From Planctomycetota bacterium (GTDB lineage Bacteria > Planctomycetota > J058 > J103), in the NCBI GenBank assembly GCA_026004615.1, contig BPJM01000005.1, positions 477 through 64,476 on the forward strand: DNA of 64,000 nt, in the 5' to 3' direction. Shown here piece after piece: positions 22,954-40,587 of the stretch. How positions within the stretch are numbered: position 1 is the first letter of the stretch; each line of letters begins with the position of its first letter. The notes under the pieces were generated by a model. It saw nothing but the letters and a program-made list of their open reading frames with translations. It did no database searches and was not told the DNA's origin. The position numbers and the translations under genes are program-made.

Positions 22954-26296
<3,343 letters not shown>

Positions 26297-26653
26297 GCCG
26301 GCAGCACGCTGCCAGGGTCCGGGGGGGCGAGCGCTGCGCGCGATCCGCGAGCCCTGGCAGCGCGCGCCCCTGGCGGGCGGTGCCCTCGCGTGCCGCCGGT
26401 CCGGCTCCAGCGGCGGGGTCTGCCGTTCGCCGGAACCGCGCGGGCGCGCCGCCGGTCCAAATCCTCTGGACAGAAGATGCCGGCGCGGTGGGCGCCACCG
26501 CCGGCGTCCGGACGGGCGAGCCCGCGGTTTGACGGTGTCGAGGCGTCCGTGCTAGGATCCGAGCTGCGGCAGGGATTCGCGCAACCTGTTACATGGCTTG
26601 GGGTTCACGGCCTCCATGCCGAGGCGCAACCGCGGGGGGCAAGGAGAGGGCTC

Positions 26654-28108
26654 ATGGTCGCAGCGCGAAGGCTCGCCACGCTCGCCCTGGCCGGTCTGCT
26701 GGGGCTGGCGCTGGGCTGTCGGTCGAGCATGTCCTATTACAACGAGGGCGTCGCGGAGCTGGAGCGGCGCAACTACGAGGCCGCGATCGAGCTGTTCACC
26801 GAGGCGCTGGATGCCGACCCGCGCAGCCATCTGGCGCTGGTGAACCGGGGCTATGCGTATCTGGAGACCCAGCGGCTGCACCAGGCGCTGGAGGACTACG
26901 ACCGCGCGATCCGGCTGCTGGAAGACAGCAACACCCCCAATCCGTGGTTTTACAACCGGCGCGGCGAGGCGTACTACATGCTCGGCCGCTACGCCGAGGC
27001 GCTCGCCGACTGGCGGCGTGCGAAGGACCTGGAGGACCGGCGCGCGGCGAAGGGCATCAAGGTGCGCGTCTCGGCAGACTACCTCGCGATGCAGCAGCGG
27101 CGCGAGGAGCTGATGGTGGACGCCGAGCGCCAGGTGGCGCTCGCGCCCCCGCTCGCCACCGCGATCCCGACCACGCCGCCGGTGCTCGAACCGGCGAGCA
27201 CGCCGGCGGCGCAGCCCTCGCCCGCACCGGAGATCGCTGCTGAGGTCGCGCGCGAGGTGCCGAGCCCGGAACAGGAGCTGGCGCTCGCCGAAGCGCGGCT
27301 GGCGCACGAGGCGGCCCGCCTGGAGGCCGAGGCGCGCGCCGCGGCGGCCGCCGCCCCGCCTGCGCCGCCGGCGCCGACTGGGGCCGAGATCGAGGCGGCG
27401 CTGGCGGAGGCGCGCGCTCTGCACGGGGCGGCGCGCGCCCAGGCCGAGGCGCGGGCGGCGGCGGCGCAGCCTGCACCGCCGCCGGCCGGCCCCAGCGCGG
27501 AGGAGGTCGAGCGGGCGCTGGCAGAGGCTCGGCTCGTGCACGGGGCGGCGCGGGCCGAGGCCGAGGCGCGGGCGGCGGCGGCGCAGCCCGCACCGCCGCC
27601 GGCCGGCCCCAGCGCGGAGGAGGTCGAGCGGGCGCTGGCAGAGGCTCGGCTCGTGCACGAGGCGGCGCGGGCCGAGGCCGAGGCGCGGGCGGCGCTCGCC
27701 GCGGCGCCTGCGGCTGCTGTCCCTGCGCCCGGCGAGGCCCAGCCTGCGGCGGCCGCGCCGCGCCCGCGCCCCATCGCGGATCTGAGCGGTACCTGGGTCC
27801 GGGATGACGAGTACACCTTCACCCTGCTCGATGACGGGCGCCGGGTCGTGGGCGAGATCGTCGGGACCGAGGATTTCTCGTTCTACGAGGTCACGCTGGA
27901 GTGGACGTCGGATCGCACCCTGACGGGCTACGCGGTGCTCAAGGAAAATCTCTCGCCGTGCAAGTTCGAGACCTCCATCGCCTGGTCCGTCGACGTGGTC
28001 GACGAGGGCACGCTCGCCGCGCGGACCGAGGAGGTCGGCTGGGACGCGGAGTGCCACGAGACCGAACGCACCTGGGGGCGCCACACGTTCACGCGGTTGC
28101 CCCGCTGA
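26654..28108 (+). CDS. Lipoprotein with N-terminal TPR-like repeats, a tandem Ala/Glu/Arg-rich repeat region and a C-terminal beta-rich domain.
   Basis: An AAGGAGAGG ribosome-binding site lies 3 nt before the ATG. Lipobox LALGC|RSS. TPR-like segments (YEAAIELFTEALDADP, YDRAIRLL, YAEALADWRRA). There are 3-4 copies of a 39-aa repeat. Confidence 0.7.
   Translation: MVAARRLATLALAGLLGLALGCRSSMSYYNEGVAELERRNYEAAIELFTEALDADPRSHLALVNRGYAYLETQRLHQALEDYDRAIRLLEDSNTPNPWFYNRRGEAYYMLGRYAEALADWRRAKDLEDRRAAKGIKVRVSADYLAMQQRREELMVDAERQVALAPPLATAIPTTPPVLEPASTPAAQPSPAPEIAAEVAREVPSPEQELALAEARLAHEAARLEAEARAAAAAAPPAPPAPTGAEIEAALAEARALHGAARAQAEARAAAAQPAPPPAGPSAEEVERALAEARLVHGAARAEAEARAAAAQPAPPPAGPSAEEVERALAEARLVHEAARAEAEARAALAAAPAAAVPAPGEAQPAAAAPRPRPIADLSGTWVRDDEYTFTLLDDGRRVVGEIVGTEDFSFYEVTLEWTSDRTLTGYAVLKENLSPCKFETSIAWSVDVVDEGTLAARTEEVGWDAECHETERTWGRHTFTRLPR
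27290..27710 (+). repeat. Tandem in-frame 117-nt (39-aa) coding repeat, 3 near-identical copies plus 1 diverged copy.
   Basis: gcacggggcggcgcg...gctcggctcgtgca recurs at 27421, 27538 and 27655. Protein unit AEARAAAAQPAPPPAGPSAEEVERALAEARLVHGAAR. Confidence 0.8.
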
Positions 28109-28179
28109 GCGGTAGGTGGGGCGGGAGACAACGTTGCTCGCCGCCTGGCGGCGGGCGCAGAGGTGAGGTGGACGGGAGC

Positions 28180-30621
28180 ATGGTCGGCTCGTTGCGAGGG
28201 GAGCACAAGGGCAGGCGGCGCGCGGGAGGCGTTCTGGCTGCGGCGCTGCTGGGTGTGGCACTCGCCGGCGGTTGCTCGACGCTCGGGCCCGCCCCGGACA
28301 ACGAGGCCATCCTCGCGGAGCTGCAGGACCTCAAGCGCGAGAGCCCCTTGCCGCAGGCGATCGCGGTCGCGCCGGTCCAGGTGGACCTGGTCTATGCCCG
28401 CGAGGCGGAGGAGGGTGAGGGCGAGCAGGCCGCATCCGAGGAGGGTGCGCCGCCTGCTGGCGGTGCCGGCGCCGAGCAACCGGCAGGGCAGCCGGGCGGG
28501 CCCCAGACCGGCATGGCGCCCCTGCCGGCCGGCGCCTCCCTCGCTGCGACCGACCTCCCTCGGCTGGCCACCCGGCTGGGGATCGAGGTCCGCTACCGCC
28601 GCCCGCTGTTCCGCGAACTGCTCTTCTCCCCGCGCGATCCCCTCGAGGGGGGGCCGGTCGAGCAGCCCGGCACCGAGGATGCGGGCGCCGGCGGGCAGCC
28701 GGGTGTGCTGTACGTCTGCCCGCGCTGCCAGAACGAGGTCTCGGCGACGATCGCGCGCTGTCCGTGGTGCGGTCTCGCCTTCGCTCCCGAGCTCCCGCCG
28801 GGTGAGCCCGCATCCGCGCCGCCGCAAGCGGTGGCGGAGCAGGCGCCACCCGCCGCGACGCCTGCGCCCGCGGGCGAGGCGGTGGCGGCGCGCGCGGAGG
28901 TCGACCGCTACATCTGCTACTTCTGCGAGAGTCCGATCGAGCCCACGGCGCTGGTCTGTCCGAACTGCGGCGTCGAACTGCAGCCCGTGCCCGGCCTGCA
29001 GGGCGAGCTGGCGCGGGAGGAGCAAGGGCCACCCGGCAAGGAGGAGCGCATCGGTCGCCTGACCGTCGGGGCGTTGAAACGGCTGGCACAGTCGCGGGCC
29101 GCCTTCGGCGTGGATCCGGTGGAGGTGCAGCGCGACCTCGCGCAGCTGGTCGAGGGGCTGGGCCTGTTCAGCGAGGTGACGGTGATCAGCGAGCAGACGC
29201 TCGTCGGCAAGACCGATGCGCTGCTCGACTGGGCGGCGGGCAACTACATCGACTATCTCATGATCCCGAGGCTTCGCCGCAACGAGATCCAGTTCGTGAA
29301 GACGAACGCCTCGTGGTGGGGCGGGCTGGCGCTCTGGGTGGCCGCCTGGGTGCCCTCGTTCTGGGTGGCAGGCGAGGACTACCAGGCGGATGTGGAGCTG
29401 GAGCTGGAGGTGTGGAGCGTCCGCGCCCGCAAGCCGATGCCGCAGTGGAATCCGACGGTCAGGGGCCGGGCGGTCGCGAGTGCGGATCAGCTCGACCGGC
29501 GCCTCAATCTGTTCCCGTGGCTCGGCTGGGACTTCATCGGGGTGCCCGCGGGTTTCGCCAACCTGACCGATGGCGGCTGGCTCAATCTCAACCGCTGGAT
29601 GACGCCCAACGCCTTCGCCGACATGAAGCGCAACCTGCTCAAGCAGCTGCACGAGTACTTCGCGGTGGCGGGCGCCTATCCGCCGCCGCCGGTCGACGTA
29701 CAGGAGGTGGCGCTGCTGGTCGGCGTCCACGAGGTGCGGCGCTCGCCCGGGGTGGGGGTGCAGCGCCAGCTGCAGTTCGCGATCAACGACCTCGAGGCGA
29801 TGAAGCTCTGCTTCACCCAGGTGACCGGCTGGGACCCCGGAGCAGCAGGCGCAGCGGGGCGCGCCGGGCGGCGCAGCCGCACCGTCGCGCTTCTTCCGGG
29901 CGCGGAGAACCCCGAGCTGCAGGCGACGACGCAGAACCTCCGCAACTGGCTCAACGTCGACCTGCAGCGGCTCGGCCCGAACGACACGTTCGTCTTCTAT
30001 TTCGCGGGCTATGGCGCCGCTCTGCCGGCACCTCCCGGTCAGCAACCATCCTGGGCGGACGGCTACGAGCGCTACCTGATCACGCACGACACCGACCCGA
30101 GCCGCATCCCGGAGACCGCGTTGAACGTCGTCGAGCTGATGAATGCGATCCGCAACTGCGCAGCGCGGCGCGTGCTGATCGTGCTGGATTGCTCGTTTGC
30201 CAAGGTGCCGGAGGATCAGTCCATCGGTTCCGGCCGCACCTGGCCGACGGGCATCGCCGAGGAGCAACTCGCCAATCTCAACGACGAGTTCCTCATCGAG
30301 CTGGCCAGGCGCACCGCACCGAAGAAGTGCGTGGTGTTCGCGGCCGCGGACATCCGGCACCCGGCATACGAGAGCCAGTTCACCCGGCCGCCCAACCACG
30401 GGCTGTTGACCGCGGCCTTCCTGGAGGGCGTGGCCGAGGGCCGGGCGGATGTCGAGGTGGGCGACGGCAACGGGGCGGTGACGCTGTTCGAGCTGGAGAA
30501 GTTCATCAGCTCGCGCTATCGGGCCTTCCAGGCGGCCTCCGGCGTGGCGGTGCGCTTCGTCTCCGGCGGCGATCTCGGCGACATGGAGATCGTGCTGCGC
30601 CCCAAGCCGGCGGAGCAGTGA
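28180..30621 (+). CDS. Lipoprotein with an acidic linker, a double zinc ribbon, a hydrophobic segment and a C-terminal caspase-like (peptidase C14 fold) domain whose catalytic His is replaced by Tyr.
   Basis: Lipobox LAGGC|ST. Zinc ribbons CPRCQNE..CPWCG and CYFCESP..CPNCG. Caspase pattern FVFYFAGYG...YLITHDTD...RRVLIVLDCSFA, which has Y in place of the His of the HG motif, and the Cys is retained. Confidence 0.7.
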   Translation: MVGSLRGEHKGRRRAGGVLAAALLGVALAGGCSTLGPAPDNEAILAELQDLKRESPLPQAIAVAPVQVDLVYAREAEEGEGEQAASEEGAPPAGGAGAEQPAGQPGGPQTGMAPLPAGASLAATDLPRLATRLGIEVRYRRPLFRELLFSPRDPLEGGPVEQPGTEDAGAGGQPGVLYVCPRCQNEVSATIARCPWCGLAFAPELPPGEPASAPPQAVAEQAPPAATPAPAGEAVAARAEVDRYICYFCESPIEPTALVCPNCGVELQPVPGLQGELAREEQGPPGKEERIGRLTVGALKRLAQSRAAFGVDPVEVQRDLAQLVEGLGLFSEVTVISEQTLVGKTDALLDWAAGNYIDYLMIPRLRRNEIQFVKTNASWWGGLALWVAAWVPSFWVAGEDYQADVELELEVWSVRARKPMPQWNPTVRGRAVASADQLDRRLNLFPWLGWDFIGVPAGFANLTDGGWLNLNRWMTPNAFADMKRNLLKQLHEYFAVAGAYPPPPVDVQEVALLVGVHEVRRSPGVGVQRQLQFAINDLEAMKLCFTQVTGWDPGAAGAAGRAGRRSRTVALLPGAENPELQATTQNLRNWLNVDLQRLGPNDTFVFYFAGYGAALPAPPGQQPSWADGYERYLITHDTDPSRIPETALNVVELMNAIRNCAARRVLIVLDCSFAKVPEDQSIGSGRTWPTGIAEEQLANLNDEFLIELARRTAPKKCVVFAAADIRHPAYESQFTRPPNHGLLTAAFLEGVAEGRADVEVGDGNGAVTLFELEKFISSRYRAFQAASGVAVRFVSGGDLGDMEIVLRPKPAEQ

Positions 30622-30699
30622 GCAGCGCGGGCGCAGCGGGACGCCCTGGCGCCTGGGGGCAGGCCGCAGCGGCGGAACCCGGCCGCGGTCGGGCCCGAC

Positions 30700-31578
30700 C
30701 TAGCGCAGCTCGATCACGCAGCGCAGCCCGTGCCACAGGTGCCGACTGGCGGGGGGCCAGCCGAGCCGCCCGCTGGTCGTGAGGACATCCCAGCAGGCAA
30801 AGGAGGTCGCATAGCCGCCGCCGCGGTCGGAGCGCTGCCGCAGGTCCAGTCCCAGGCGCGCGCGCAGTGCATCGTCCAGGCAGGGATCGACGTCCAGTCC
30901 GGCCTGGACGCACCAGCGGTAGAAGCCTTCCCAGTACCAGTCGCGGCACCAGTTGTTGACGTTGCCCGCCATGTCGGTCAGGCCGTAGGGGCTGCGGCCC
31001 TCGGGGTAGCGGCCGAGCTCGGAGGTCCGGCCGAGCCGCCCGTCGAAGTTGCACAGCTGCGATCGCGGCAGCGCCTCGCCCCAGGGAAAGCGCCGGCGGT
31101 CGGTGCCGCGCGCCGCTTTCTCCCACTGCGCCTCCGTGGGTAGCTGCTTGCCGGCCCAGCGGGCATACGCGTCCGCCTCGTACCAGGAGAGCCCCGCGGC
31201 CGGCTGCCGCTCGCCGTCGAACCCCACGGTGAGGAAGCTCAGCGGGCGGGTCACGCCGGTGGCGCTCCGCCACGCCCAGCCGTCCTCGCGCCACAGCTCG
31301 GGTCGCGTATAGCCGCCGTCGGCGATGAACTGGGCGAACTGGGCGTTGGAGACCGGGTCCCGATCGATCAGGTAGGCGCTCAGCCACACCACACGCCCGG
31401 GCAGCTCGTCCTCGGGGGCGAACAGATCGCCGGGCTCACGGCCGATGAAGACCTCGCCGGCAGGCACCAGCACCATGACCGCGCCGTCGCGCGGCGCGCG
31501 CCAGCACCCCCCGGCGCGCGCGATCTCGCGCGCGTCCGGCGCGGTGCCCGGTGTGCCTTCCCCGAGCTGCCCGCGCAT
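30700..31578 (-). CDS. FGE-sulfatase / SUMF1 family domain protein (formylglycine-generating-enzyme-like), 292 aa.
   Basis: MVLVPAGEVFIGREPGDLF...RVVWLSAYLIDRDPVSNAQFAQFIADGGY...LPTEAQWEKAARG...GNVNNWCRDWY. Only the 3' 879 nt of ORF 30700..32019 is real. Its ATG at 31578 follows the REC gene stop. Confidence 0.8.
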   Translation of the reverse strand: MRGQLGEGTPGTAPDAREIARAGGCWRAPRDGAVMVLVPAGEVFIGREPGDLFAPEDELPGRVVWLSAYLIDRDPVSNAQFAQFIADGGYTRPELWREDGWAWRSATGVTRPLSFLTVGFDGERQPAAGLSWYEADAYARWAGKQLPTEAQWEKAARGTDRRRFPWGEALPRSQLCNFDGRLGRTSELGRYPEGRSPYGLTDMAGNVNNWCRDWYWEGFYRWCVQAGLDVDPCLDDALRARLGLDLRQRSDRGGGYATSFACWDVLTTSGRLGWPPASRHLWHGLRCVIELR

Positions 31579-31583
31579 CGCGG

Positions 31584-32015
31584 TTACCTCCCCTCGGGGT
31601 GCTCGCCGCCCGGTGACGAGGTGGCACCGGCCGCCCGGGTCCGCCGCCCGATTGCCGCCTGCAGGCGCGCTGCGATCTCCATGATGGTGTGGGTGCCCTT
31701 GACGATGACCTCGTGTGCGCCAAGCGCGAGGGCGCGCTCCACGTTGCCCCGGATGGGGTGCGAGGTGTAGACCAGCACCGGCGGCGCGTCCGGTCGGCCG
31801 CGCAGGTGCTCCAGCACGCCGAATCCGTCGATCACCGGCATGGCGAGGTCGAGCAGCACCGCATCGATCGGCTCGCGCTCCAGCGCCTCGATCGCAGCCT
31901 GCCCGTCGGTGACCTCGATCACCCGATAGCCGCGGCGCTCCAGGATGAGGGCGAGCGGCCGCCGGACGATCGACAGATCCTCGGCTACCAGCACGCTCGG
32001 CCGCGGTCCGCTCAT
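31584..32015 (-). CDS. Single-domain response regulator (CheY-like receiver).
   Basis: VLVAEDLSIVRRPLALILERRGYRVIEVTDGQAAIEAL...DAVLLDLAMPVIDGF...VLVYTSH...K. Confidence 0.85.
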   Translation of the reverse strand: MSGPRPSVLVAEDLSIVRRPLALILERRGYRVIEVTDGQAAIEALEREPIDAVLLDLAMPVIDGFGVLEHLRGRPDAPPVLVYTSHPIRGNVERALALGAHEVIVKGTHTIMEIAARLQAAIGRRTRAAGATSSPGGEHPEGR

Positions 32016-33175
32016 GCACCGGCCGCTCCGGAAATGGCTGCCGCCTGGCGCGACGGCAGGGCGATCACGACGCGACAGGCCTCGGGGCTGGCCTGCAGCC
32101 GCAGCGTGCCGCCCAGCGCGGCCGCCGCGGCGCGCGCGAAACTCAGCTCCAGCTCATCGTTGAGCGCGACGCCGGCGGCCCGGAGCGCGCGCCGCGCCGC
32201 CGGATCCAGCAGCGCGCGCTCCAGGGTCGCCGAGCCGCCGGGCATGCCGGGCAGCGGCCCCAGCTCCAGCTGCACACCGCCGGCCTCGCTGCGCTCGACC
32301 GCGAGGACCGGCGGCGCCTGCGCGGCGCTGCCGGCGGCCGCCGCGTTCGCCCCCGCCCGCAGCAGGCACTCGCAGAGCCGGACGGCGAGCGCGCGGTCGG
32401 CTGCCAGCACCGCCGCCTCCAGGCCGGGCGCCACCCTGACCGGTACCGCCCCGGGGGCTGCCGGCCCGCGCTCCGCCGGCCCATCGGCGGCCTGCAGTCG
32501 TGCCACCGCCTGCCGCAATACCTCGGCGAGCGGCACCGGCTCGGGTCGATGGTACAGCTCGTCGCGCTCGAGCAGTTCCAGATCGTCCAGGTTCTCGACC
32601 AGGCGGTGCAACCGCGCTCCCTCTCGGCGCGCAAGCGCCACCAGCTCGCGTTGGGGCGGCGTCAGCGCGCCCGCCAGGCCCTGCTCCAGGGCCTCGAGGT
32701 TGCGGTGCAGCGCGCCGAGCGGGGTGCGCAGGTCCTCCGCCAGCATGTGGCGGAGCGTGGCGCGGCCAAGCGCAAGCTCGACCAGGCGCATGGCGTTGCG
32801 CAGCCGGCGCGTCAGTTCCGGCAGATCGAATGGCTTGGCCACATAGTCCATGGCGCCGTAGCGCAGCGCCTCGCGCGCGCTGTCCAGCTCTCCGTACGCG
32901 GTGACGATCACGAAGGCCGGTATCTCGCCGCTGGCGCGCTGCCGTACCGCGCGCAGCAGCTCCACGCCGCTCATCCCGGGCATCTTGAGATCGGACACCA
33001 CCAGTGCCGGCAGCGCCTTGTCCATCCGCGCCAGCGCCGGCTCCGCCGCCTCGAACGCCTCCACGCGCCATCCCTGGCGTTTGAGCTGGCGCATCAGGAC
33101 CTCGCGGATCACCGGCTCGTCGTCGACGACGAACACCAGGTCCCGCTCGACCAGTTGCAGCAGTCCGGGCTCCAT
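32012..33175 (-). CDS. Response-regulator receiver fused to a histidine-kinase-like domain. The phospho-accepting His is replaced (AEDLRTPL) and the ATPase boxes are degenerate, so this is a pseudo-histidine kinase.
   Basis: REC: LVFVVDDEPVIREVLMRQLKRQGWRV...VVSDLKMPGMSGVELL...VTAYG. DHp-like region: LAEDLRTPLGALHRNLEALEQG, where the consensus is sHELRTPL. I could not find clear N, G1 or G2 boxes. The stop overlaps the REC gene start (ATGA). Confidence 0.7.
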   Translation of the reverse strand: MEPGLLQLVERDLVFVVDDEPVIREVLMRQLKRQGWRVEAFEAAEPALARMDKALPALVVSDLKMPGMSGVELLRAVRQRASGEIPAFVIVTAYGELDSAREALRYGAMDYVAKPFDLPELTRRLRNAMRLVELALGRATLRHMLAEDLRTPLGALHRNLEALEQGLAGALTPPQRELVALARREGARLHRLVENLDDLELLERDELYHRPEPVPLAEVLRQAVARLQAADGPAERGPAAPGAVPVRVAPGLEAAVLAADRALAVRLCECLLRAGANAAAAGSAAQAPPVLAVERSEAGGVQLELGPLPGMPGGSATLERALLDPAARRALRAAGVALNDELELSFARAAAAALGGTLRLQASPEACRVVIALPSRQAAAISGAAGA

Positions 33176-33385
33176 GGGGCTCCGTTCTCCGCCGCCTCTG
33201 CCGCGGTGTTTCGCCAGGCAGCAGCGCCGTCCCGAATCATACGACACGCTCGGGCGCACCGCCGGGTCGGGGAGGGGGGCGACTGGGTGTCCGGCCAGTG
33301 CCGGCCCACGGCCCTCCAGCCTGCAGGAAGCGCCTGCACGGCTGCGCTGCCGCAGGTGCTCGGCCAGTCGCCGGCGCGCGGGGGA

Positions 33386-36106
33386 TCAGCGAGCAGGCGC
33401 GTGCGGGGACACCCGGCCACCGAGCAGCGTGAACAGCAGCACGCACAGGCACAGCGCCGCCAGCACGGGCACCAGCGGGTTGGCGCGCAGGAAACTGAGC
33501 AGCTTCTCGCGGCGGAACAGCTCCGGCGCCCAGCTCGCGGCCGCCCGGTACTGTTCGAAGGCCAGCCGCCAGTCGCCCGCGGCCATGGCCTCGGCGCCGC
33601 GCGCGCCATGGATGGCGGCGAGGCTCTGCGCCACCTGGGCCTCCAGGTTGGCATCCAGCGCGCGCGCCGCGTAGAGAAAACGGATCGCATCCTCCAGCGG
33701 CCGGCCCTCGCGCACCACCCGGTAGTCCCCGGTGGGCGCCAGGCGCTGCACCATGCTGGAGTGGACCCAGCCCTGCAGGCCGGCGGCGTCGACGACCTGC
33801 AGCCACGGCCCGACGGAACCACCACCCGGATGCGGCGCCAGGAGCTCGCCGGGCACCAGTGAGCGCGCGCTGCCGTACGCCTCACCCGGGCCGCGGCGCA
33901 GCAGTGGCTGCTCGCGCAGCTCCAGCCCGATAGTGTAGCACAGGCGCGCGAGCTGCCGGCGCAACTCTCCGTGCTCGGGTGCCAGGAAATACGCCCGCAG
34001 CAGCGCTCCGACCTTCCAGCGCCGCGCCTCCACTCGCGGCGGCGGGCTGTCCGCTGCCTCCAGCCAGCGCACGGCCAGGCGTTCCGCCTGATCCTGCAGG
34101 CGGCGCCGCGTTTCGGCCAGGCTCTGGAGCGCGTTCTGGGCCCAGGCGAGGTGTGTGCGGATCTCATCTGCCGTGCGGCCCCGCTGGTGGCTCACGATCT
34201 TGCCGAGGAGCTGGCGCCGGCGCTCCTGCTCGGGCAAGGCCGGCAGCACGGCGTCGAAGAAGTGGGAGTCGGCCTTCGGCAGCTCGAGCGCCTGGGCCAG
34301 CTCGAGCAGGGTGCCCGGGTGCACCTCCTCCAGCGCCAGCAGGACCTGCTGCGCCGCGCCAGGCTGCTCGTCCCGGAGCGCGTTCGCCAGCCACTGGACC
34401 GCCTGCAGTCGCCGCGCCTGGAAGACGGCGCGTGCCGCGAGCTGGACCTCGCGGTCGGGGTGCTGTGTGAGCGGCAGCGCGGCGCGAAAGGCGATCTCCG
34501 CCTCCGGGCGCAGCAGCTCCAGCAGCTCGAGCGCGCGCACAAGCTGCGTCTCGGTCCGCATCGCGCGCGGACTCGTGGCGCCGGCCGCGTCCGGCACCGC
34601 GATCGCTGCGGCGGGCTTCGCCAGCACGCCGAGCAGGTAGTCCTGCGCCTGGCGTCCGAACTGCGCGAACGCCTCCGCCAGCGGGCGGCTCGTCCCCGCT
34701 GCCCCCAGGCAGTAGTGGTAGAACAGCAGCGGCAGGTAGCTGGCGTTGCCGCTCTCGACCATGGCGGCCAGCGCCGCCCGGCGGAGCGACTGCTCGCCCC
34801 GCTCGTATGCCTGGACCAGCGCTGGCACGGCCCGCTCGTCCCCGAAGGGGACGAACTGCTCGGGCGCGTAGATCGGCTCGATCACGAGGTCCTGCGGTTG
34901 CAACAGACGGGTGCGCCAGCTCCAGGCGACCGGGGTCTCGGGCAGCATCGGCGGCAGTGTCAGCTGCTCGCTCTTTGCCTGCATGCCCACCTCGACCACC
35001 GTGGGCCGTCCCTCCAGCAGGACCGCGCGATGGTAGCTGCCCTGGTACGTGAACTGTCTTCCCAGCCGTGCCAGGCGCTCGAAGTCCTCGCCGTCGGCGG
35101 TCAGCTGAGCCCGGATGCGGACCAGCTGGTCAGGTTCGACCAGCAACTCTCCCCGGGCTGTCACGCGCAGCCGCGCTCCCACGAGCAGGTGCCCCGGGCG
35201 CCGGTGCACCGCTGTCCCGGTCACGACCCAGAGCTGTGCGGCCGGGTCCAGGCTGCCCTGGCCCACCTCCACCGCCACGGACAGCAACACCGGCTGGAGC
35301 GGGCGAGCGTCCCCGGGAGCGGTCGCGGGCCCGGCGAGCGCCCGGGGGTCGATTGCCTGGAGGCGGCGGATCTCGGCGCGCGGGATGGTGACGCTCCGCT
35401 CCTCGGCGGTCCGGAGCACGACCGCCTGCTCGGTCACCCGCTCGACGTAGCCGCGCACCCCGTCGATCTCGAGCGCTGCACCGACCTTCAACAGCTCGGC
35501 GAAAGCCTGCCCGGACGCCGGCTCCCCTTCCGTGCCCCCGCGCTCCGCGTCGCGTTCGAGCACTTCATACGCGCGGATATCCCCCAGTCCGAGCACGACC
35601 ACCCCCGCGCTGCGCCCCTCTGGATCGAGCAGGTACAGGTCCGGCGGATCGTAGCGCTGCAGCCGCCAGCGCACCGGGCCGCTGCCGCGGTCCACGACGA
35701 CCAGCGCTCCGGGCGGCGTCGCACGGATGCGGCGGTCCATCTCCACCGCCAGGGGCGAGGAGAGGGCGGCGTTGCCGGGGGCCGGCTCTGTTCCGCTCTG
35801 CTGGCCGAGCTGCACCTGCACCACGCGCTCGTGTTCGTCCAGCAGCAGCCGCACCGAGCGGCCGCGGGGCAGCAGCTCCGCGCGGTGCAGGCGCTGCAGT
35901 TCGGCGAGTGCCTCCGGGCTCAGCTCGAAGCTACGACCGCCGCGCAGCATAACGACCGGCCGCTCGCCTGGCTGGCGGGGGACGACGTGGAAGTCGTACT
36001 GGCCTTCGACCGCGGAGGGCGGTGGCTCGTCCTGGGCGAGGGCCGGGGACGCGCTACAGGTCAAGATCAAAAACGCCAGTAGGATGCGGAGCATACCGTA
36101 GAGCAT
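33386..36106 (-). CDS. Large (906 aa) secreted or membrane-anchored protein with a signal peptide and a C-terminal TM segment, hypothetical.
   Basis: Signal peptide MLRILLAFLILTCSASPALA|QDE. Long helical repeat-like regions. C-terminal TM LVPVLAALCLCVLLFTLLGG. Confidence 0.55.
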   Translation of the reverse strand: MLYGMLRILLAFLILTCSASPALAQDEPPPSAVEGQYDFHVVPRQPGERPVVMLRGGRSFELSPEALAELQRLHRAELLPRGRSVRLLLDEHERVVQVQLGQQSGTEPAPGNAALSSPLAVEMDRRIRATPPGALVVVDRGSGPVRWRLQRYDPPDLYLLDPEGRSAGVVVLGLGDIRAYEVLERDAERGGTEGEPASGQAFAELLKVGAALEIDGVRGYVERVTEQAVVLRTAEERSVTIPRAEIRRLQAIDPRALAGPATAPGDARPLQPVLLSVAVEVGQGSLDPAAQLWVVTGTAVHRRPGHLLVGARLRVTARGELLVEPDQLVRIRAQLTADGEDFERLARLGRQFTYQGSYHRAVLLEGRPTVVEVGMQAKSEQLTLPPMLPETPVAWSWRTRLLQPQDLVIEPIYAPEQFVPFGDERAVPALVQAYERGEQSLRRAALAAMVESGNASYLPLLFYHYCLGAAGTSRPLAEAFAQFGRQAQDYLLGVLAKPAAAIAVPDAAGATSPRAMRTETQLVRALELLELLRPEAEIAFRAALPLTQHPDREVQLAARAVFQARRLQAVQWLANALRDEQPGAAQQVLLALEEVHPGTLLELAQALELPKADSHFFDAVLPALPEQERRRQLLGKIVSHQRGRTADEIRTHLAWAQNALQSLAETRRRLQDQAERLAVRWLEAADSPPPRVEARRWKVGALLRAYFLAPEHGELRRQLARLCYTIGLELREQPLLRRGPGEAYGSARSLVPGELLAPHPGGGSVGPWLQVVDAAGLQGWVHSSMVQRLAPTGDYRVVREGRPLEDAIRFLYAARALDANLEAQVAQSLAAIHGARGAEAMAAGDWRLAFEQYRAAASWAPELFRREKLLSFLRANPLVPVLAALCLCVLLFTLLGGRVSPHAPAR

Positions 36107-36228
36107 TCAAGCACCCCGCACCGGCACTGTCAACGCGCGCCCAGGCGCGCCGGCTCCGTCCCCTGGCGGCGGAGGACAGCACGGCCTATCATGGCGGTGA
36201 GACGGCTCCACGGAGGGCCCCGAGCCCC

Positions 36229-37932
36229 ATGTCCATCTCGAAACTGCTGTTCGGCGAGATCGCGCTCAAGAAGAAGCTGGTCACCAAGGACCAGGTCGAG
36301 GAGTGCCTCGAGATCCAGAAGCGCCTCAAGGAGATGGGCATCAACAAGACGCTCGGCGCCATCATGCACGACAAGAAGTACCTCTCGATGGTGGAGATCA
36401 AGGAGATCCTTCGTGAGATGACCGGCACGAAGGACTGGAACGCCATCGAGGGCTACGAGATCCTCGGCAAGCTCGGCAAGGGCGGCATGGGCAGCGTGTA
36501 CAAGGCGCGCCATACCCGGCTGGACAAGCTGGTCGCGCTCAAGGTGTTGCCGCCGGAGCTGGCGGGCGACCAGGAGTACCTCGACCGGTTCATGCGCGAG
36601 GCCCACGCCGCCGCCAAGCTCAATCACCCCCACATCGTGCAGGCGCTCGATGTCGGCGAGAGCTACGGCTACCACTACTTCGTCATGGAGTACGTCGAGG
36701 GCCGCACGGTCAAGGAGATGATCGACGAGCAGGGCACGCTCGACGAGCTGACCTCGCTCCGCATCATCGCCCAGATGGCCGAGGCGCTGGAGCATGCGTG
36801 GCGCAACGAGATCGTGCACCGCGACATCAAGCCCTCGAACATCATCGTCACCCGGGCCGGGGTGGCCAAGCTGTGCGACCTGGGGCTGGCGAAGACGGTC
36901 GACGATGATTCCACGATCACCCAGACCGGCGTGATCATGGGGACCCCGTTCTACCTCTCGCCCGAGCAGGCACGCAGCGAACCGCTCGACTGCCGGAGCG
37001 ACATCTACTCGCTCGGAGTCACCCTGTTCCACATGGTGACGGGCCAGGTGCCTTTCACCGGCAACTCCGCGGCGACGATCCTGTACAAGCACATCTTCCT
37101 CGACCCGCCCAACCCCAAGAGCCTCAACCCGTCGCTGAGCGACGGGACGGTGAAGTTGCTGCGCCGCATGCTCGCCAAGCGCAAGGAGGACCGGTTCGCG
37201 GACCCGACCGAGCTGCTCGCTGCGGTGCGCGAGGTGATCGCACAGCTCCGTCCCGAGGCGGTCACCGAGCAGGTGCGCGGCGACGCCGAAGCGCACGGAG
37301 CGCTGCTCGCTTCCCGCGCGGAGGCGAGCGGAGCCAGCAGCGGTGCGCTCGCCCGCACCGTCGATCTCACCTCGCCCCACCCCTCGGTGGCGGCGGCGGA
37401 GGCGGGAGCGCCGCCAGGGCAGGGCAGCGCGGCGGTGACGGTGGGCGGGCGCTGGTCGCGCAGTCGCCTGGTGGCGGCGAGTTTTGCCACGCTGGGGCTG
37501 GCCGCCACCACCGCCCTGCTCGCCGCCAATGTGCTGCTTCCGGTCGAGCGCCCGGCCGCCGAGGCAGCCCTCGACCCCGTCGCCCTTCTCATGCCCCTGG
37601 ACCGGCCGCGGCCCGAGGTGGAGGCGGCACTGCGGCGCGGACAGGAGCTGCTGCAGGCACATCGCTATGCCGAGGCCCTGGCGGTGATCGATCAGCTGCC
37701 GGCCGAGCCGCCGCTCGAACCGGCGGAGCTGGGGGCCGTGCTCCGGCTGCGCGAGCAGGTGCTCCTGGCGGCCATGAGGCGGCCCGAGGAGCTTCGCCGG
37801 CGCCACGAAGCCGGCGAGGACGTGCTGGCCGAGGTGCGCGCCCTGGGGTTGTCGGCGCTGGCCGACGAGCTGCGCAGGCACGAGGAGTGGCTGGGGCGCC
37901 AGCGCCCGCCCGCCCCCATGCCCGAGCGCTGA
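36229..37932 (+). CDS. Ser/Thr protein kinase with an N-terminal MshEN/T2SSE_N-like domain and a C-terminal TM plus TPR-like tail.
   Basis: N-terminus: MSISKLLFGEIALKKKLVTKDQVEECLEIQKR...LGAIMHDKKYLSMVEIKEIL. Kinase: GKGGMGSVYKARH, HRDIKPSNI, DLGLAK, GTPFYLSPEQ. A GGAGGG ribosome-binding site precedes the ATG. Confidence 0.85.
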   Translation: MSISKLLFGEIALKKKLVTKDQVEECLEIQKRLKEMGINKTLGAIMHDKKYLSMVEIKEILREMTGTKDWNAIEGYEILGKLGKGGMGSVYKARHTRLDKLVALKVLPPELAGDQEYLDRFMREAHAAAKLNHPHIVQALDVGESYGYHYFVMEYVEGRTVKEMIDEQGTLDELTSLRIIAQMAEALEHAWRNEIVHRDIKPSNIIVTRAGVAKLCDLGLAKTVDDDSTITQTGVIMGTPFYLSPEQARSEPLDCRSDIYSLGVTLFHMVTGQVPFTGNSAATILYKHIFLDPPNPKSLNPSLSDGTVKLLRRMLAKRKEDRFADPTELLAAVREVIAQLRPEAVTEQVRGDAEAHGALLASRAEASGASSGALARTVDLTSPHPSVAAAEAGAPPGQGSAAVTVGGRWSRSRLVAASFATLGLAATTALLAANVLLPVERPAAEAALDPVALLMPLDRPRPEVEAALRRGQELLQAHRYAEALAVIDQLPAEPPLEPAELGAVLRLREQVLLAAMRRPEELRRRHEAGEDVLAEVRALGLSALADELRRHEEWLGRQRPPAPMPER

Positions 37933-37944
37933 GCGCGCCCGGAC

Positions 37945-40341
37945 CTAGCGGTTGGCGCGCCGCTCGATCGCCTCGATCGCCTGCTTGAGCTTGTTCTTGA
38001 TGTAGTGGTGGGCCTCGCGCTCGTAGGCCGCCTGGAGCATGGGCAGGTCGCTGGTCTCGCCCACCCGCGCCAGGTACCTCGCAGCCTCGGCACGATTGTT
38101 GAGCCGATCGTCGCGTTGCAGCACGTCGGTGAAGAACGCCATCGCCTCGCGGCCCGCCTTGCCAGCCAGAGCCCGGATGGCGGTCGAGCGCACGGAGGCA
38201 TTCTGCTCCTGGCGCGCCAGGTCGGCCAGAAATGCGGTATCCTGGGGGCCCGCCGCCTTGCCCTCCAGCGCGCGGATCGCCTCTATACGCGCATTCGGAT
38301 CGGAATCGCCGCGCGCGATGTCCTGCAACGCCGCCACGCCCGCACCGCCCTCGGCCGAGCCCAGGGCGCGGATGAGGTACTTCTTGATGCGTGCGTCCTG
38401 CTCGCTCCTGGCCAGCGCCTCTAGCTCGGCGACGTCCTCGGGCCGGTCGAGCTTCTGCAGCATGAACAGCAGGCGCAGCTTCTCGCCCGCATCCTGCGTG
38501 GTGCGGATCGCATCGATGAGGTCGCGCGTGCTCGCGCGCCCCTCGATCGCGCGCAGCACGTAGCCGAGCGAGACCTTGACGTTGAACTGGCGTTCGTTGT
38601 CGTAGGCCTGTTTGAGCGCATCGGCGATCTCGCGGCCGCGAGCGACCAGCGCCTGCTCTTCACGGCGGATCGCTTCCTGGTCGCGCGCACGGTGGGCGCG
38701 CCGCAATCCCTCCAGGAGGTCCCCCGGCACCGGTTCGGCCTCGCTGTCTTCCTGGGGCGCCGCCTCCGGGTCGGGTTCTGCCGCCGCGCCGAGCGCGGGC
38801 TGCGCCGCCGGCGCGGCGGCCGCCCGCACCGGCGGGGCGGGCGCCGCTGCAGCGGCCGGCGGCGCCGGCGCCCGGGATGGCTGCTCGGCACGGCGCAGGC
38901 TCTGGACGGACAGCGGCTCGACGGGCCGGAACGCCGCCGGCGGCACGGGTGCGGCGATCCGCGTGCTGCTCGCCCGCAGCGGCTGGATGTCGTCCGCGCC
39001 GATGAGCTTGTACACCATGTACACGCACGCGATGAGCACGACCCCGGCTGCGGCGTATCCGAACCACTCGCGCCGCCGCGCCCAGCGCCCGCCGAGCGGC
39101 GCCACCGGTTGCGCGGCGAAGGGGCCCGCAGCAAGCGCGGCGGTCGCCTCGCTCTGCGGCTCGCCGCCGCTGGCGGCGGGGGCGGCTGCGGCCGCGCCGC
39201 CCCCGCCCGCACCTGCAAGGGCCACCGCCGGCCGAATCCCGCTCTGCACCGCGGCCTCGGCAGCGCTCTCCTCGGCGGCCGGGGCGGTCAGCAGCGCCGC
39301 GAGCGCCGGCCGCTCGGCCCGCGCCTCGGCCAACAGCCGTGCGTAGGCCTTCGCCTTGCCGCGCAGCACGCGATCCATCTCCTCGAAGTCGCGCCGCACC
39401 GCCTCGAGCTTCTCCAGCAGCCCCGCGACGCGCCGATCGGCTACCTCCTCGGTCTGGCGCAGCTGCTCGCGCAGCCGCGCGATCTCCTCGTCGCGCTGGC
39501 GCAGCAGCTGCTCGGTTTCGGCGTACCGCTTGGCGAAGCTGTGGATGCGCTCCTTGGCCCGCTCGAGCTGTTCGACGAAGGACTCGGTGGCCAGGCTCAG
39601 CCCGTCGCGCTTGCGTCGCAGCTCCTGCTCCAGCTCCTGCAGGCGCGCGCGCAGATCGACGTTCTCCTCGCGCTCGCGCTCCAGCTCCGCGCGCAGGCGA
39701 TCCAGCTCGGCAGCACTCCCTGCCGCCTCGAGGGGGGGCGGGGCCGGAGCGGGGGCGGCAGCCGGCTCGTCCGCCTGCTCGGGCGCGGCGGCAGCCTCCA
39801 CGCCCGCCGTCGCAGCCATGGGGTCGATGCCCGCGGGCGGCGAAAGGGGCGGAGCGGCAGGCGCTGCCGCCGGCGCGCTCGCCCCCTGCGGCGCCGCTGG
39901 CGGCGCGGAGCCGCTGCGCGCGAGCAGCGCCTGCACGGCCGTTGCGGCGTCGGAGCCCTCTTGCGCGGCCGCAGCGCCTGTCGCCGCCGCCGCCCCGGCT
40001 GGCTCTTGTCCCGCCGCGGCACCTGCCGGCGCGGCCTGCAGCGGTACGGACCCGGCCTGGGCGGCGAAGACAAGCTCCACCTGGCCGATGCGGATGCGAT
40101 CCCCATCGCTGAGCGCCTTGTGCAGGACGCGGCGATCGTTCACCTCCACGCCGCCCCGGCTCTGCAGGTCCTCCACCCAGTACCGCCCGCCGCGGTGGTA
40201 CACCCGGGCGTGGCTCCACTCGACACCGGGGTCCGTGCAGGTGAGCCCGGAGGCCTCATCGCTGCCGATGATCACGCTGCCGTCGCCGAGTCGGACGGAG
40301 TGCCCGCGGCGACTACCGGAGACGACGTGGAGCGCTGCCAT
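37945..40341 (-). CDS. FHA-domain protein with a coiled coil, one TM segment and C-terminal HEAT (PBS-lyase-like) repeats.
   Basis: FHA: LHVVSGSRRGHSVRLGDGSVIIGSDEASGLTCTDPGVEWSHARVYHRGGRYWVEDLQSRGGVEVNDRRV. Coiled coil: ELDRLRAELEREREENVDLRARLQELEQELRRK. TM: WFGYAAAGVVLIACVYMVYKLI. HEAT-like: ARIKKYLIRALGS..NARIEAIRALEG..SVRSTAIRALAG. Start at the ATG at 40341. Confidence 0.8.
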   Translation of the reverse strand: MAALHVVSGSRRGHSVRLGDGSVIIGSDEASGLTCTDPGVEWSHARVYHRGGRYWVEDLQSRGGVEVNDRRVLHKALSDGDRIRIGQVELVFAAQAGSVPLQAAPAGAAAGQEPAGAAAATGAAAAQEGSDAATAVQALLARSGSAPPAAPQGASAPAAAPAAPPLSPPAGIDPMAATAGVEAAAAPEQADEPAAAPAPAPPPLEAAGSAAELDRLRAELEREREENVDLRARLQELEQELRRKRDGLSLATESFVEQLERAKERIHSFAKRYAETEQLLRQRDEEIARLREQLRQTEEVADRRVAGLLEKLEAVRRDFEEMDRVLRGKAKAYARLLAEARAERPALAALLTAPAAEESAAEAAVQSGIRPAVALAGAGGGGAAAAAPAASGGEPQSEATAALAAGPFAAQPVAPLGGRWARRREWFGYAAAGVVLIACVYMVYKLIGADDIQPLRASSTRIAAPVPPAAFRPVEPLSVQSLRRAEQPSRAPAPPAAAAAPAPPVRAAAAPAAQPALGAAAEPDPEAAPQEDSEAEPVPGDLLEGLRRAHRARDQEAIRREEQALVARGREIADALKQAYDNERQFNVKVSLGYVLRAIEGRASTRDLIDAIRTTQDAGEKLRLLFMLQKLDRPEDVAELEALARSEQDARIKKYLIRALGSAEGGAGVAALQDIARGDSDPNARIEAIRALEGKAAGPQDTAFLADLARQEQNASVRSTAIRALAGKAGREAMAFFTDVLQRDDRLNNRAEAARYLARVGETSDLPMLQAAYEREAHHYIKNKLKQAIEAIERRANR

Positions 40342-40587
40342 GGCTCGCTCGGTCCTCGCCCTGGGGCTCGCGGTGGCCTCGGTCACGGTCGAACTGCCCC
40401 CTTCATCATCCTGATCCGACCCGCCCGAACACGGGGCGCGCCGGCAGCACGCCGGGCCAACCCGCGGGCGGCACCGGCCCCGAGTGTGCACCGGTTGGGA
40501 CGCCCCGGGCGCGCACCGGGTTCAGCGGCCGGCACCGGGCATGCTTGCGCCGGCGGCTGGCCTGCCCTGGCCGCAGGTGGCGCAGTG

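Follow-up and report, generated by a model that had tools for sequence, protein, structure and literature searches.

A receiver-controlled histidine pseudokinase translationally coupled to a partner receiver in rare Planctomycetota

Gene organization of the locus

The window, i.e. the whole stretch of 64,000 nucleotides analysed here, derives from a metagenome-assembled genome of a Planctomycetota bacterium. We found in it a gene for a Rec-controlled histidine pseudokinase, followed by genes for a single-domain receiver (REC2) and for a stand-alone protein of the FGE-sulfatase fold (Table 1). The pseudokinase consists of three parts, an intact N-terminal receiver (REC1), a DHp of the HisKA type and a CA-like domain. 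Its open reading frame begins with ATG and shows a GGAG-rich stretch 5' of the start codon. The same product was called by NCBI and Logan, and the N-termini of the orthologues align to the same start, which further supports the start position. A scan of positions 30400-33600 for promoters and terminators found none, and none were expected at a GC content of 74%.

Table 1. Genes, domains and key codons of the pseudokinase locus, with positions in the window
Feature	Position	Strand	Remarks
Ser/Thr kinase - TM - extracytoplasmic FGE-sulfatase fusion	23099..26296	+	TM segment aa 409-427; same architecture and position in L008/L009
TPR protein	26390..28108	+	same position in L006, L008
Caspase-like (C14) lipoprotein with zinc ribbons	28180..30621	+	convergent; same position in L006, L008, L062
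Stand-alone cytoplasmic FGE-sulfatase-fold protein	30700..31578	-	292 aa; PF03781 at 1.4e-46
Single-domain receiver REC2	31584..32015	-	143 aa; start overlaps pseudokinase stop (ATGA)
Rec-controlled histidine pseudokinase gene	32012..33175	-	387 aa; NCBI GIW72183.1, KatS3mg102_1725
Degenerate CA-like α/β domain (predicted)	32045..32560	-	aa 206-377; box alignments and AF2 fold
Signalling helix αS and DHp hairpin	32561..32824	-	aa 118-205; AF2 helices 118-164 and 173-203
His190 codon (CAC), DHp helix α2	32606..32608	-	family column HHHHHHRH
Glu147 codon (GAG), phospho-accepting His position	32735..32737	-	sequence read directly; alignments
N-terminal receiver REC1	32825..33151	-	aa 9-117 of AF2 model; Pfam
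906-aa protein, signal peptide and C-terminal TM anchor	33386..36106	-	210 nt upstream of pseudokinase
Membrane Ser/Thr kinase	36229..37932	+	divergent from 906-aa gene; same position in L004, L008
FHA-HEAT protein	37945..40491	-	same position in L008/L009
Soluble hybrid HisKA-HATPase-REC kinase, nearest histidine kinase	42928..44148		about 10 kb from pseudokinase

REC2 was encoded downstream of the pseudokinase in all eight loci with a visible downstream gene, mostly with overlaps of 1 or 4 nt, and its orthologues (52-69% identical) were more conserved than the pseudokinase. Residues D13, D56 and K106 as well as a V17-R18-R19-P20 motif in helix α1 were invariant, Thr or Ser was retained at the end of β4, and the active site was intact. 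Both the translational coupling to a single-domain receiver (ATGA) and the FGE-sulfatase gene starting 5 nt past it (TAA-CCGCG-ATG), which had been claimed in an earlier sequence-only reading of this DNA, were read directly in the sequence. The same reading had proposed a three-gene arrangement with an FGE-type output, and this held for one part of the family. The FGE-like gene follows REC2 in five lineages (window, L004, L006, L008 and L062), but the closest homologue of the pseudokinase (P0121 in L003) is accompanied by an Rce1-like protease in its place, and the FGE link is therefore a feature of one clade and not of the module. In L011 the contig stops directly behind REC2, and the genes upstream are different, with a PilT-like ATPase among them. 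The conserved core of the module is the pseudokinase together with the translationally coupled REC2.

The orthologues of the FGE-like protein were 63-66% identical, and its relatives in the PDB were EgtB and FGE. Neither a TM segment nor a signal peptide was found in this protein. In human and T. curvata FGE, the catalytic cysteine pair that binds Cu(I) lies in GGS-x-x-C-x-x-x-x-C. The corresponding region reads RGGGYATSFACWD in four of four orthologues, with Thr and Trp apparently at the two Cys positions and a single Cys one position off. Since the protein appears to lack the Cys pair found in genuine formylglycine-generating enzymes, a sulfatase-modifying chemistry is unlikely.

For the 906-aa protein encoded upstream, no confident Pfam domain was found and a single-sequence AF2 model was unusable (pLDDT 37.6). 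Its orthologues (926-1086 aa, 27-30% identity) occupied the same position in L004, L006 and L008, and none was present upstream in L003 and L011. A phmmer search of the caspase-like domain against the PDB returned noise only; by motif comparison alone, this lipoprotein may be read as a Tyr/Ser pseudo-caspase. The pseudokinase operon encoded no phosphodonor kinase. The nearest hybrid histidine kinase showed no visible synteny at other loci, and in L002 a catalytically intact Rec-HisKA-HATPase protein was encoded divergently beside the pseudokinase. We rejected these two kinases as recent paralogues of the pseudokinase, since only their REC domains aligned with it. PADLOC matched the cluster to generic Ser/Thr kinases only, and we therefore do not regard it as a catalogued defence system.

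Family and distribution

An exhaustive HMMER search identified seven other proteins of the same architecture with 40-49% identity. The eight known clusters all come from metagenomes, so that statistics on conservation are thin, and the family is known from a rare group of Planctomycetota. Mean pairwise identity within the family was 0.54 for the DHp, 0.52 for the REC domain and 0.32 for the CA-like domain, and the DHp was thus conserved to the same degree as the receiver. Word-indexed searches recovered little of this family: with the whole protein they returned the query itself and REC-level matches, with nothing on the C-terminal part, and with profiles of the C-terminal or DHp alignment they returned two of the eight members or none. 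A locus search with pseudokinase alignments gave no confirmed relative in GTDB genomes or metagenomes. With the conserved REC2 motif, one true orthologue was found among 185,579 species representatives (L012, on the contig already listed as L003) and two in metagenomes (L062 and L063). The other matches to this motif (25-47% identity) were generic receivers and were left out.

The receiver and the DHp hairpin

The pseudokinase matched Pfam Response_reg at residues 14-125 (6e-26). The active-site residues D18, D19, D62, T92 and K114 were present and invariant in 8/8 family members, and the switch residue Y111 was present as well. REC1 thus retains every residue needed for its phosphorylation. 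The AF2 model of the whole protein had a pLDDT of 82.7 and a pTM of 0.69, with pLDDT values of about 90 or more across most of REC1. In this model one continuous helix joins REC1 to the DHp and is followed by the second helix of the hairpin. The spacing between the KP of the receiver and the canonical His position was exactly 33 residues in all eight members.

The HisKA domain was matched at residues 144-203 with 33.6 bits, above the gathering threshold of 26.9. The H-box of the pseudokinase reads H143-MLAEDLRTPLGA-155. Glu147 aligned with the phospho-accepting His in MAFFT alignments with 11 REC-HisKA-HATPase proteins and with further canonical kinases, and in HMMER comparisons with solved kinases 'LAEDLRTPL' paired with 'LSHELKTPL' (9m08) and 'LSHDLRTPL' (KdpD, 6lgq). 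The replacement of the phospho-accepting His by Glu, as first noticed in the sequence alone, was thus recovered in three independent comparisons. Across the family this column reads E, D, E, E, E, G, E, G, without a single His. About 0.9% of HisKA domains are described as lacking the His (PMC12632262). The sequence-only reading had itself raised the possibility that an indel had shifted the His, and no member had a His at or near the canonical position. A shift of the acceptor to H143, at -4 relative to Glu147, was rejected because this residue is not conserved; apart from H143 of the window protein, DHp helix α1 contained no His in any member. The idea of a phosphomimetic Glu can be kept only in part. 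An acidic side chain is common (Glu in five members, Asp in one), but it is not required, because two members have Gly.

The most conserved part of the DHp was the stretch just past position 147 (P152, G154, A155, N159, L160, A162 and L163). In canonical kinases the stretch after the phospho-His is the region of response regulator specificity. The only His conserved in the family was His190 on helix α2 (7/8, with Arg in P0126), at a column where canonical kinases have V, I, T, L, Q or A. Judged from the helix limits in the AF2 model (164/173), it is predicted to lie roughly level with residue 147 in the hairpin. A pure scaffold model does not account for this conserved, family-specific residue.

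The phosphatase motif of HisKA proteins is D/E-x-x-T/N (PMC12963549). The window protein keeps this motif as D148-L-R-T151. The H+4 residue in the other seven members is A, V, S, V, V, V and L, and the motif is absent from six or seven of them. Since the others do not keep Thr or Asn at H+4, neither kinase nor phosphatase chemistry appears to be conserved in the family.

The CA-like domain

No HATPase_c match was obtained in the pseudokinase by Pfam even at E<=1. At the G1 site (DxGxG) the protein reads 'GPLPGMPGG' and at the G2 site (GxGLGL) 'NDELEL', and a box-by-box alignment found no F-box. The N-box Asn was retained in the window member alone, and we list the N, G1, F and G2 boxes as lost; the G1 and G2 boxes were absent in 8/8 members. 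The CA-like region has a low-complexity, Ala-rich sequence. AF2 predicted a CA-like α/β fold, and the model matched histidine kinase cores including KdpD (6lgq, TMt 0.75) and DivL (4q20, TMt 0.66), the histidine kinase region of RetS (6dk7) and GacS (7z8n), with LvrB (8vc9, E 5e-13) as the best match in the PDB. According to the model, the fold of this domain is kept while its ATP-binding motifs are gone. The earlier failure to find the ATPase boxes was borne out by the alignments and by the missing HATPase_c match. With the His and the ATP-binding boxes absent and the fold retained, the suspected pseudo-kinase is judged, from its sequence and predicted fold, to be a genuine histidine pseudokinase.

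Origin from a metagenome-assembled genome and the low-complexity, Ala-rich CA-like region would both be compatible with a gene in decay, or with an ordinary Rec-histidine kinase distorted by assembly or indel errors. We assign this explanation a negligible probability. A separate Logan assembly (run DRR290133) yielded an identical protein, eight diverged and intact orthologues show the same losses with the same 33-residue linker, the AF2 model is confident, and the translational coupling to a conserved partner is itself conserved. Assembly error and decay were rejected on the identical independent assembly and on the absence of the His from 7/7 homologues of the same architecture. The presence of eight clusters with intact open reading frames and conserved synteny shows that the pseudokinase is kept by selection and is no recent pseudogene.

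Proposed function of the pseudokinase

Most likely, the pseudokinase signals by binding rather than by catalysis. We favour, with a probability of about 0.55, the reading that it is a catalytically dead descendant of a Rec-histidine kinase (Rec-αS-DHp-CA) which acts as a DivL-like binder of REC2 and is switched by REC1. A kinase from outside the operon would phosphorylate REC1 at Asp62, and phosphorylated REC1 would re-pack the αS helices and free the CA-like domain from the DHp bundle in the manner of LvrB. The DHp surface exposed in this way might then bind REC2 or let it go. The kinase core would thus serve as a phosphorylation-dependent docking or sensing module in the style of DivL and DivK~P, and not as an enzyme, by which REC2 would be sequestered or presented. 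In the clade of the window, the FGE-fold protein of the cytoplasm and the surrounding envelope-spanning cluster of Ser/Thr-kinase, FHA and caspase-like proteins might receive the signal from REC2. In known complexes of histidine kinases with response regulators, helix α1 of the regulator docks onto the DHp. The pairing of the two genes, the conserved DHp stretch and the conserved α1 of REC2 suggest that REC2 may bind at this docking surface.

Other functions of the pseudokinase are conceivable. A receiver, a DHp bundle element, a CA-like domain that does not bind ATP and a second receiver also make up the layout of a phosphorelay. Spo0B and ChpT are proteins composed of a DHp and a pseudo-CA domain. 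The pseudokinase might thus be a histidine phosphotransferase that passes phosphate from REC1 to His190, as a replacement on α2 for the α1 His, and on to REC2, in a relay of the Spo0F-Spo0B-Spo0A type. His190 is the sole conserved and family-specific His, the end of α1 at 164 and the start of α2 at 173 place it about level with position 147, and the active sites of REC1 and REC2 are both complete. However, the Arg of P0126 shows that this His is not universal, its exposure is uncertain beside the hydrophobic core positions L189 and L192, and an alternation of Arg and His would equally fit a role in structure or electrostatics close to the acidic residues 147 and 148. We know of no DHp protein that uses a His on α2, and consider such a relay quite unlikely. 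An equally low probability applies to a dedicated, His-independent phosphatase of phosphorylated REC2, in which phosphorylation of REC1 would move the DHp into or out of a phosphatase conformation. With D148-x-x-T151 intact, the window protein could still dephosphorylate REC2; the His is dispensable for the phosphatase activity of HisKA proteins (PMC12632262; bioRxiv 2025.06.23.661182), and the symmetric state of LvrB has been proposed as a phosphatase state. Against this, the same work notes a contribution of the His to the phosphatase reaction of HisKA proteins (PMC12632262), and the presence of Thr at H+4 in the window member alone means that the family cannot share this activity as its conserved function.

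The similarity of the model to the RetS kinase region and to GacS would suit a decoy, whose dead DHp would form a heterodimer with the DHp of a true histidine kinase from another locus and so block or modulate that kinase, with REC2 as a further substrate or phosphate sink of the latter. Candidate partners would be the intact Rec-HisKA-HATPase protein adjoining the pseudokinase in L002 and the soluble hybrid kinase of the window. These real kinases are, however, neither close paralogues of the pseudokinase nor syntenic across loci, and direct binding of REC2 better explains why its gene is so strictly coupled to the pseudokinase and why the regulator-docking stretch is conserved. We consider a decoy very unlikely. 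Beyond the preferred DivL-like binding of REC2, a bolder view can be stated, which we regard as improbable even when its two versions are taken jointly. In the one, the pseudokinase and REC2 would form the cytoplasmic hub of a conserved, envelope-spanning island of ~17 kb in rare Planctomycetota, made up mostly of non-catalytic versions of enzymes (the dead Rec-histidine kinase, the putative Tyr/Ser pseudo-caspase lipoprotein and two FGE-fold domains without the Cys pair) together with two membrane Ser/Thr kinases and an FHA protein, and would couple Asp phosphorylation to Hanks-kinase signalling. In the other, His190 on α2 would be a relocated phospho-acceptor, and the pseudokinase would, if this were true, be the first phosphotransferase of the DHp kind with its acceptor on helix α2.

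Comparison with known systems

Although histidine pseudokinases are an acknowledged class, few of them, chiefly DivL and PsmA, have been investigated, and the present finding overturns no current concept. The family provides a clean case of a Rec-controlled scaffold in which kinase chemistry and, family-wide, phosphatase chemistry appear to have been lost, while the input receiver, a signalling helix of fixed length and a dedicated co-translated partner receiver have been retained. It thereby offers a compact system for what a histidine kinase core does with a conformational switch and a docking surface alone. The surrounding gene island, conserved and apparently rich in pseudoenzymes, may connect Ser/Thr-kinase signalling with two-component systems in Planctomycetota that are themselves little known.

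In its order of domains (Rec, long αS, HisKA DHp, CA), its length of about 380 aa and its intact receiver active site, the pseudokinase resembles the Rec-histidine kinases, also termed hybrid response regulators, with LvrB of Leptospira (8vc9) as their prototype and PhcR of Ralstonia as another example. In LvrB, phosphorylation of the receiver leads to formation of the αS coiled coil and sets the CA domain free (PMC13269768). With His161 and a functional CA domain, LvrB autophosphorylates and passes the phosphate on to LvrC (PMC13269768), whereas the pseudokinase has Glu for the His, has lost the G1, F and G2 boxes and shows no detectable HATPase_c domain.

With DivL of Caulobacter (4q20) it shares a histidine kinase core without the phospho-His that is paired with a single-domain receiver. 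The DivL core has neither kinase nor phosphatase activity and binds phosphorylated DivK via the canonical docking surface for response regulators (PMC4211667). Unlike the pseudokinase, DivL still possesses its N, G1, F and G2 boxes, with Tyr standing in for the phospho-His, and it carries PAS domains and a membrane anchor instead of an N-terminal receiver. The divL and divK genes lack translational coupling, and DivL and the pseudokinase have no sequence relationship beyond the histidine kinase superfamily. The Streptomyces pseudokinase PsmA shows a likewise variable His position (E/D/Q/V/Y), degenerate ATP-binding motifs and conservation within one lineage, and it has been proposed to act as a scaffold (PMC12963549). 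PsmA has also lost D/ExxT/N, which most members of the present family other than the window protein lack as well. PsmA differs in its architecture (PAS-HK-long IDR-REC, with a C-terminal receiver whose Asp is dispensable), in binding DivIVA, in having no partner REC gene and in belonging to a different phylum.

Spo0B and ChpT combine a DHp-like hairpin with a CA-like domain unable to bind ATP and act between two receivers, a layout that the pseudokinase is predicted to share. They keep a phosphorylatable His on α1, in place of which the pseudokinase family has Glu, Asp or Gly, with His190 on α2 as its only candidate (7/8). RetS and RcsD are similar in using a histidine kinase fold for protein-protein regulation in two-component networks without His phosphorylation of their own. 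RetS, however, acts on GacS by heterodimerisation of the DHp, RcsD carries a separate HPt domain, and neither has an N-terminal receiver together with a co-translated REC protein. Histidine pseudokinases as such are thus already known, and it is the combination of a Rec-controlled pseudokinase with a co-translated receiver that is a new arrangement.

A receiver-linked histidine kinase core without the acceptor His

The window has a GC content of 73.6% and encodes a 387-aa protein, deposited as hypothetical protein KatS3mg102_1725 (GIW72183.1) from a Planctomycetota MAG and here termed the pseudokinase (see table). An identical protein was present in a separate Logan assembly of run DRR290133, so that mis-assembly or indels cannot explain its oddities. 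Pfam domains identified were a receiver (REC1, residues 14-125, 6e-26) and a HisKA domain (residues 144-203, 33.6 bits against a gathering score of 26.9), with no HATPase_c match even at E<=1. The H-box reads H143-M-L-A-E147-D-L-R-T-P-L-G-A155. Direct reading of the Glu147 codon gave ctc on the forward strand and GAG on the coding strand, and Glu147 fell in the phospho-His column in MAFFT alignments with eleven REC-HisKA-HATPase proteins and with five further canonical kinases. In pairwise HMMER comparisons with kinases of known structure, LAEDLRTPL aligned with LSHELKTPL (9m08) and LSHDLRTPL (KdpD, 6lgq).

The KdpD alignment spanned the whole C-terminal domain and matched NLLENAVKY of KdpD to CLLRAGANAA, DNGPGLPPG to G-PLPGMPGG, and GVGLGLAI to NDELELSF. 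This indicates that the pseudokinase keeps a CA-like domain in which the nucleotide-binding motifs are lost. The sequence-only reading had proposed both the His to Glu replacement and the missing ATP boxes, and these three independent placements of Glu147 together with the degenerate boxes bear it out.

A usable AF2 model (pLDDT 82.7, pTM 0.69, eight-sequence alignment) predicted the fold of a histidine kinase core behind a (βα)5 receiver: an uninterrupted helix 118-164 comprising αS and DHp α1, a return helix 173-203 and an α/β domain 212-377. The best PDB match by Foldseek was LvrB of Leptospira (8vc9, E 5e-13), followed by the kinase cores of KdpD (6lgq, TMt 0.75), CusS, HK853 and GacS; the catalytically silent DivL (4q20) and RetS (6dk7) were matched as well.

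Coordinates of features in window numbering, or on homologous loci (L numbers), with order in the syntenic neighbourhood
Feature	Position	Strand	Order
Syntenic neighbourhood, ~17 kb	23099..40491		
FHA-HEAT protein			1
Membrane Ser/Thr kinase			2
900-1086-aa protein, signal peptide and C-terminal TM anchor			3
906-aa protein	33386..36106	-	
Pseudokinase, 387 aa	33175..32012	-	4
Glu147 codon	32737..32735	-	
His190 codon	32606..32608	-	
REC2, single-domain receiver, 143 aa	32015..31584	-	5
FGE-like protein, 292 aa	31578..30700	-	6
Caspase-like lipoprotein, convergent	28180..30621	+	7
TPR protein			8
Ser/Thr-kinase-TM-FGE fusion	23099..26296	+	9
FGE domain of the fusion	25553..26293	+	
Hybrid histidine kinase, 406 aa	42928..44148	+	
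Rec-HisKA-HATPase_c protein, 386 aa	L002:6654-7814	-	
REC protein, 260 aa	L002:5860-6642	-	
Rce1-like CPBP protease	L003:2463-3182	+	
PilT-like T2SSE ATPase fragment	L011:2-598	+	
Caspase-like orthologue	L062:1552-3312	-	

A maintained family

Searches with the whole protein returned receiver-level matches only. When the C-terminal 259 residues were used in an exhaustive HMMER search, seven further cluster representatives emerged that match in length and layout (P0121-P0126 and P0131, 332-392 aa; E-values 1e-36 to 8.5e-10); their full-length identity to the window protein is 40-49%. The family is rare: clustering at 90% identity gives eight clusters, each of 1-3 sequences, and a single orthologue was found among 185,579 GTDB species representatives; both named members are Planctomycetota MAGs.

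None of the eight members has His in the canonical column (E, D, E, E, E, G, E, G), which, with the independent assembly, disposes of the earlier caveat that an indel had shifted it. The suggestion of a phosphomimetic Glu is not needed given Gly in two members, although an acidic residue is still preferred (6/8). No member has a G1 or G2 box, and the second N-box Asn is retained in the window protein only. Receiver residues D18, D19, D62, T92 and K114 are invariant, and exactly 33 residues separate the receiver K-P from the 'H' position in 8/8 members. By analogy, this fixed linker length suggests that LvrB-type mechanical coupling is retained in the family.

Between pairs of members, identity averaged 0.52 in the receiver and 0.54 in the DHp, against 0.32 in the CA-like domain. 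The DHp is thus constrained as strongly as the receiver, and the CA-like domain is kept as a folded module with its sequence free to drift; this pattern marks a pseudoenzyme maintained by selection. The best-conserved DHp stretch (P152, G154, A155, N159, L160, A162, L163) lies directly C-terminal of position 147. In canonical kinases the residues for response regulator specificity lie just C-terminal of the phospho-His position, and the conserved stretch is consistent with a preserved putative interface for REC2.

A conserved gene pair with a variable third gene

We compared the contigs coding for each family member plus two extra loci found via REC2. REC2 directly followed the pseudokinase wherever a downstream gene was visible, that is in the window locus (L001) and eight homologous loci (L002, L003, L004, L005, L006/L007, L008-L010/L063, L011). 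The genes overlap by 4 nt or 1 nt except in L011 (52-nt gap). In the window, as had been read earlier, the pseudokinase stop overlaps the REC2 start (ATGA), and 5 nt (CCGCG) separate the REC2 TAA from the ATG of the FGE-sulfatase-fold gene. REC2 orthologues are 52-69% identical and better conserved than the pseudokinase, with D13, D56 and K106 invariant, Thr/Ser retained at the β4 end and an invariant V-R-R-P motif in helix α1. In solved complexes of histidine kinases with response regulators, regulator α1 docks on the DHp.

An FGE-fold protein is the third gene in five lineages (window, L004, L006, L008, L062; 63-66% identity). The locus of the closest homologue (P0121 in L003, Planctomycetota MAG J103) carries a CPBP protease gene instead. 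In L011 the contig stops after REC2, and an ATPase fragment lies upstream, ending 2 nt short of the pseudokinase start. As the third gene varies, the conserved module consists of the pseudokinase and REC2, with the FGE link limited to one clade; of the three-gene module proposed earlier, only the pair holds throughout. The FGE domain fused to a kinase does exist, on a Ser/Thr protein kinase and not a histidine kinase.

The stand-alone FGE-like protein is the most conserved operon gene. The FGE Cys pair is absent from both FGE-fold domains of the cluster, the corresponding region reading RGGGYATSFACWD in the stand-alone protein and RGGSFAINNFIPK in the fusion. The former has no signal peptide and is predicted to be cytoplasmic; the FGE domain of the fusion lies beyond the TM helix and is predicted to be extracytoplasmic.

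The wider neighbourhood

A comparison of the window with L008/L009 (1-21119), L006 and L004 revealed a syntenic neighbourhood in the FGE clade with protein identity of only about 40%. PADLOC returned generic Ser/Thr-kinase matches only, so the neighbourhood does not correspond to any catalogued defence system. The 906-aa protein carries a signal peptide and one C-terminal TM helix, and its C-terminal two thirds are predicted to be helical; it had no confident Pfam domain (marginal MS_channel_2nd β-domain match, 2e-4), its orthologues are 27-30% identical, and a single-sequence AF2 model was unusable (pLDDT 37.6).

The caspase-like lipoprotein (Peptidase_C14) carries FYFAGYGAA and LIVLDCSFAK at the catalytic sites of p20, and its L062 orthologue shares GYG and DCSF. 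The counterparts in active (meta)caspases are ..SGHG.. and D-x-C-H-S-G, which we take, by motif comparison, to mean that Tyr has replaced His and Ser has replaced Cys. Such changes are the 'pseudo-orthocaspase' pattern (PMC6426788). A phmmer search of the domain against PDB gave no usable alignment.

Just after prolyl-tRNA synthetase, ~10 kb from the operon, lies a soluble hybrid histidine kinase (HisKA-HATPase_c-REC, no sensor domain). It is not closely related to the pseudokinase and may be considered a candidate phosphodonor of either REC1 or REC2. In L002 a catalytically intact Rec-HisKA-HATPase_c protein divergently adjoins the pseudokinase-REC2 pair of P0126 and aligns to the pseudokinase in the REC domains alone; a divergent REC protein lies beside the same pair.

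Proposed mechanism and alternatives

We propose, with a probability of roughly 55%, that the kinase core is a phosphorylation-gated binding module and not an enzyme. The model combines an intact receiver, a fixed-length helix, a DHp without acceptor His, a dead CA and a co-translated intact receiver, with LvrB as analogy for input and DivL for output. A kinase would phosphorylate Asp62 of REC1; αS and DHp would then be re-packed and the CA-like domain freed, as in LvrB, and the freed state would alter binding of REC2 or REC2~P to the DHp docking surface, as in DivL.

A Spo0B/ChpT-like relay from REC1 via a relocated His190 to REC2 would suit the gene layout well. His190 is the sole family-conserved His (7/8), lies on DHp helix α2 about level with residue 147 by helix geometry, and is replaced by V/I/T/L/Q/A in canonical kinases; no DHp protein is known to use an acceptor on α2, however, and P0126 has Arg in this column, so we consider a relay unlikely. 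It is likewise improbable that the window protein dephosphorylates REC2: its HisKA phosphatase motif D/E-x-x-T/N is intact (D148...T151), but the H+4 residue in the other seven members is A, V, S, V, V, V and L, and phosphatase chemistry therefore cannot be the conserved function of the family. Slightly less probable still is a RetS-like heterodimer with a real kinase, as the kinases encoded nearby are not closely paralogous to the pseudokinase and show no visible synteny. A pseudogene or artefact is excluded by the identical independent assembly and the maintained eight-member family.

Comparison with known systems

By architecture and predicted fold the pseudokinase is a descendant of Rec-controlled histidine kinases. 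Their His and ATP-binding CA domain are missing here, and without these two defining features it is not to be classed among them. By function it falls among the histidine pseudokinases, a class already recognised and reviewed by Collins and Childers as cited in PMC12632262; HisKA domains without His made up 0.9% (722/76,471) of those in a recent survey (bioRxiv 2025.06.23.661182 / PMC12632262). DivL has no kinase or phosphatase activity and binds DivK~P via the canonical docking interface (PMC4211667), and is the precedent for a kinase core as binder of a single-domain receiver. PsmA of Streptomyces resembles our family in its variable His position (E/D/Q/V/Y), degenerate ATP motifs and loss of D/ExxT/N (PMC12963549). 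In the literature searched we found no published description of a Rec-controlled pseudokinase. Three aspects are new: an N-terminal controlling receiver joined to a dead kinase core and accompanied by a dedicated co-translated receiver, the conservation of this combination as a family, and its position in a conserved signalling island.
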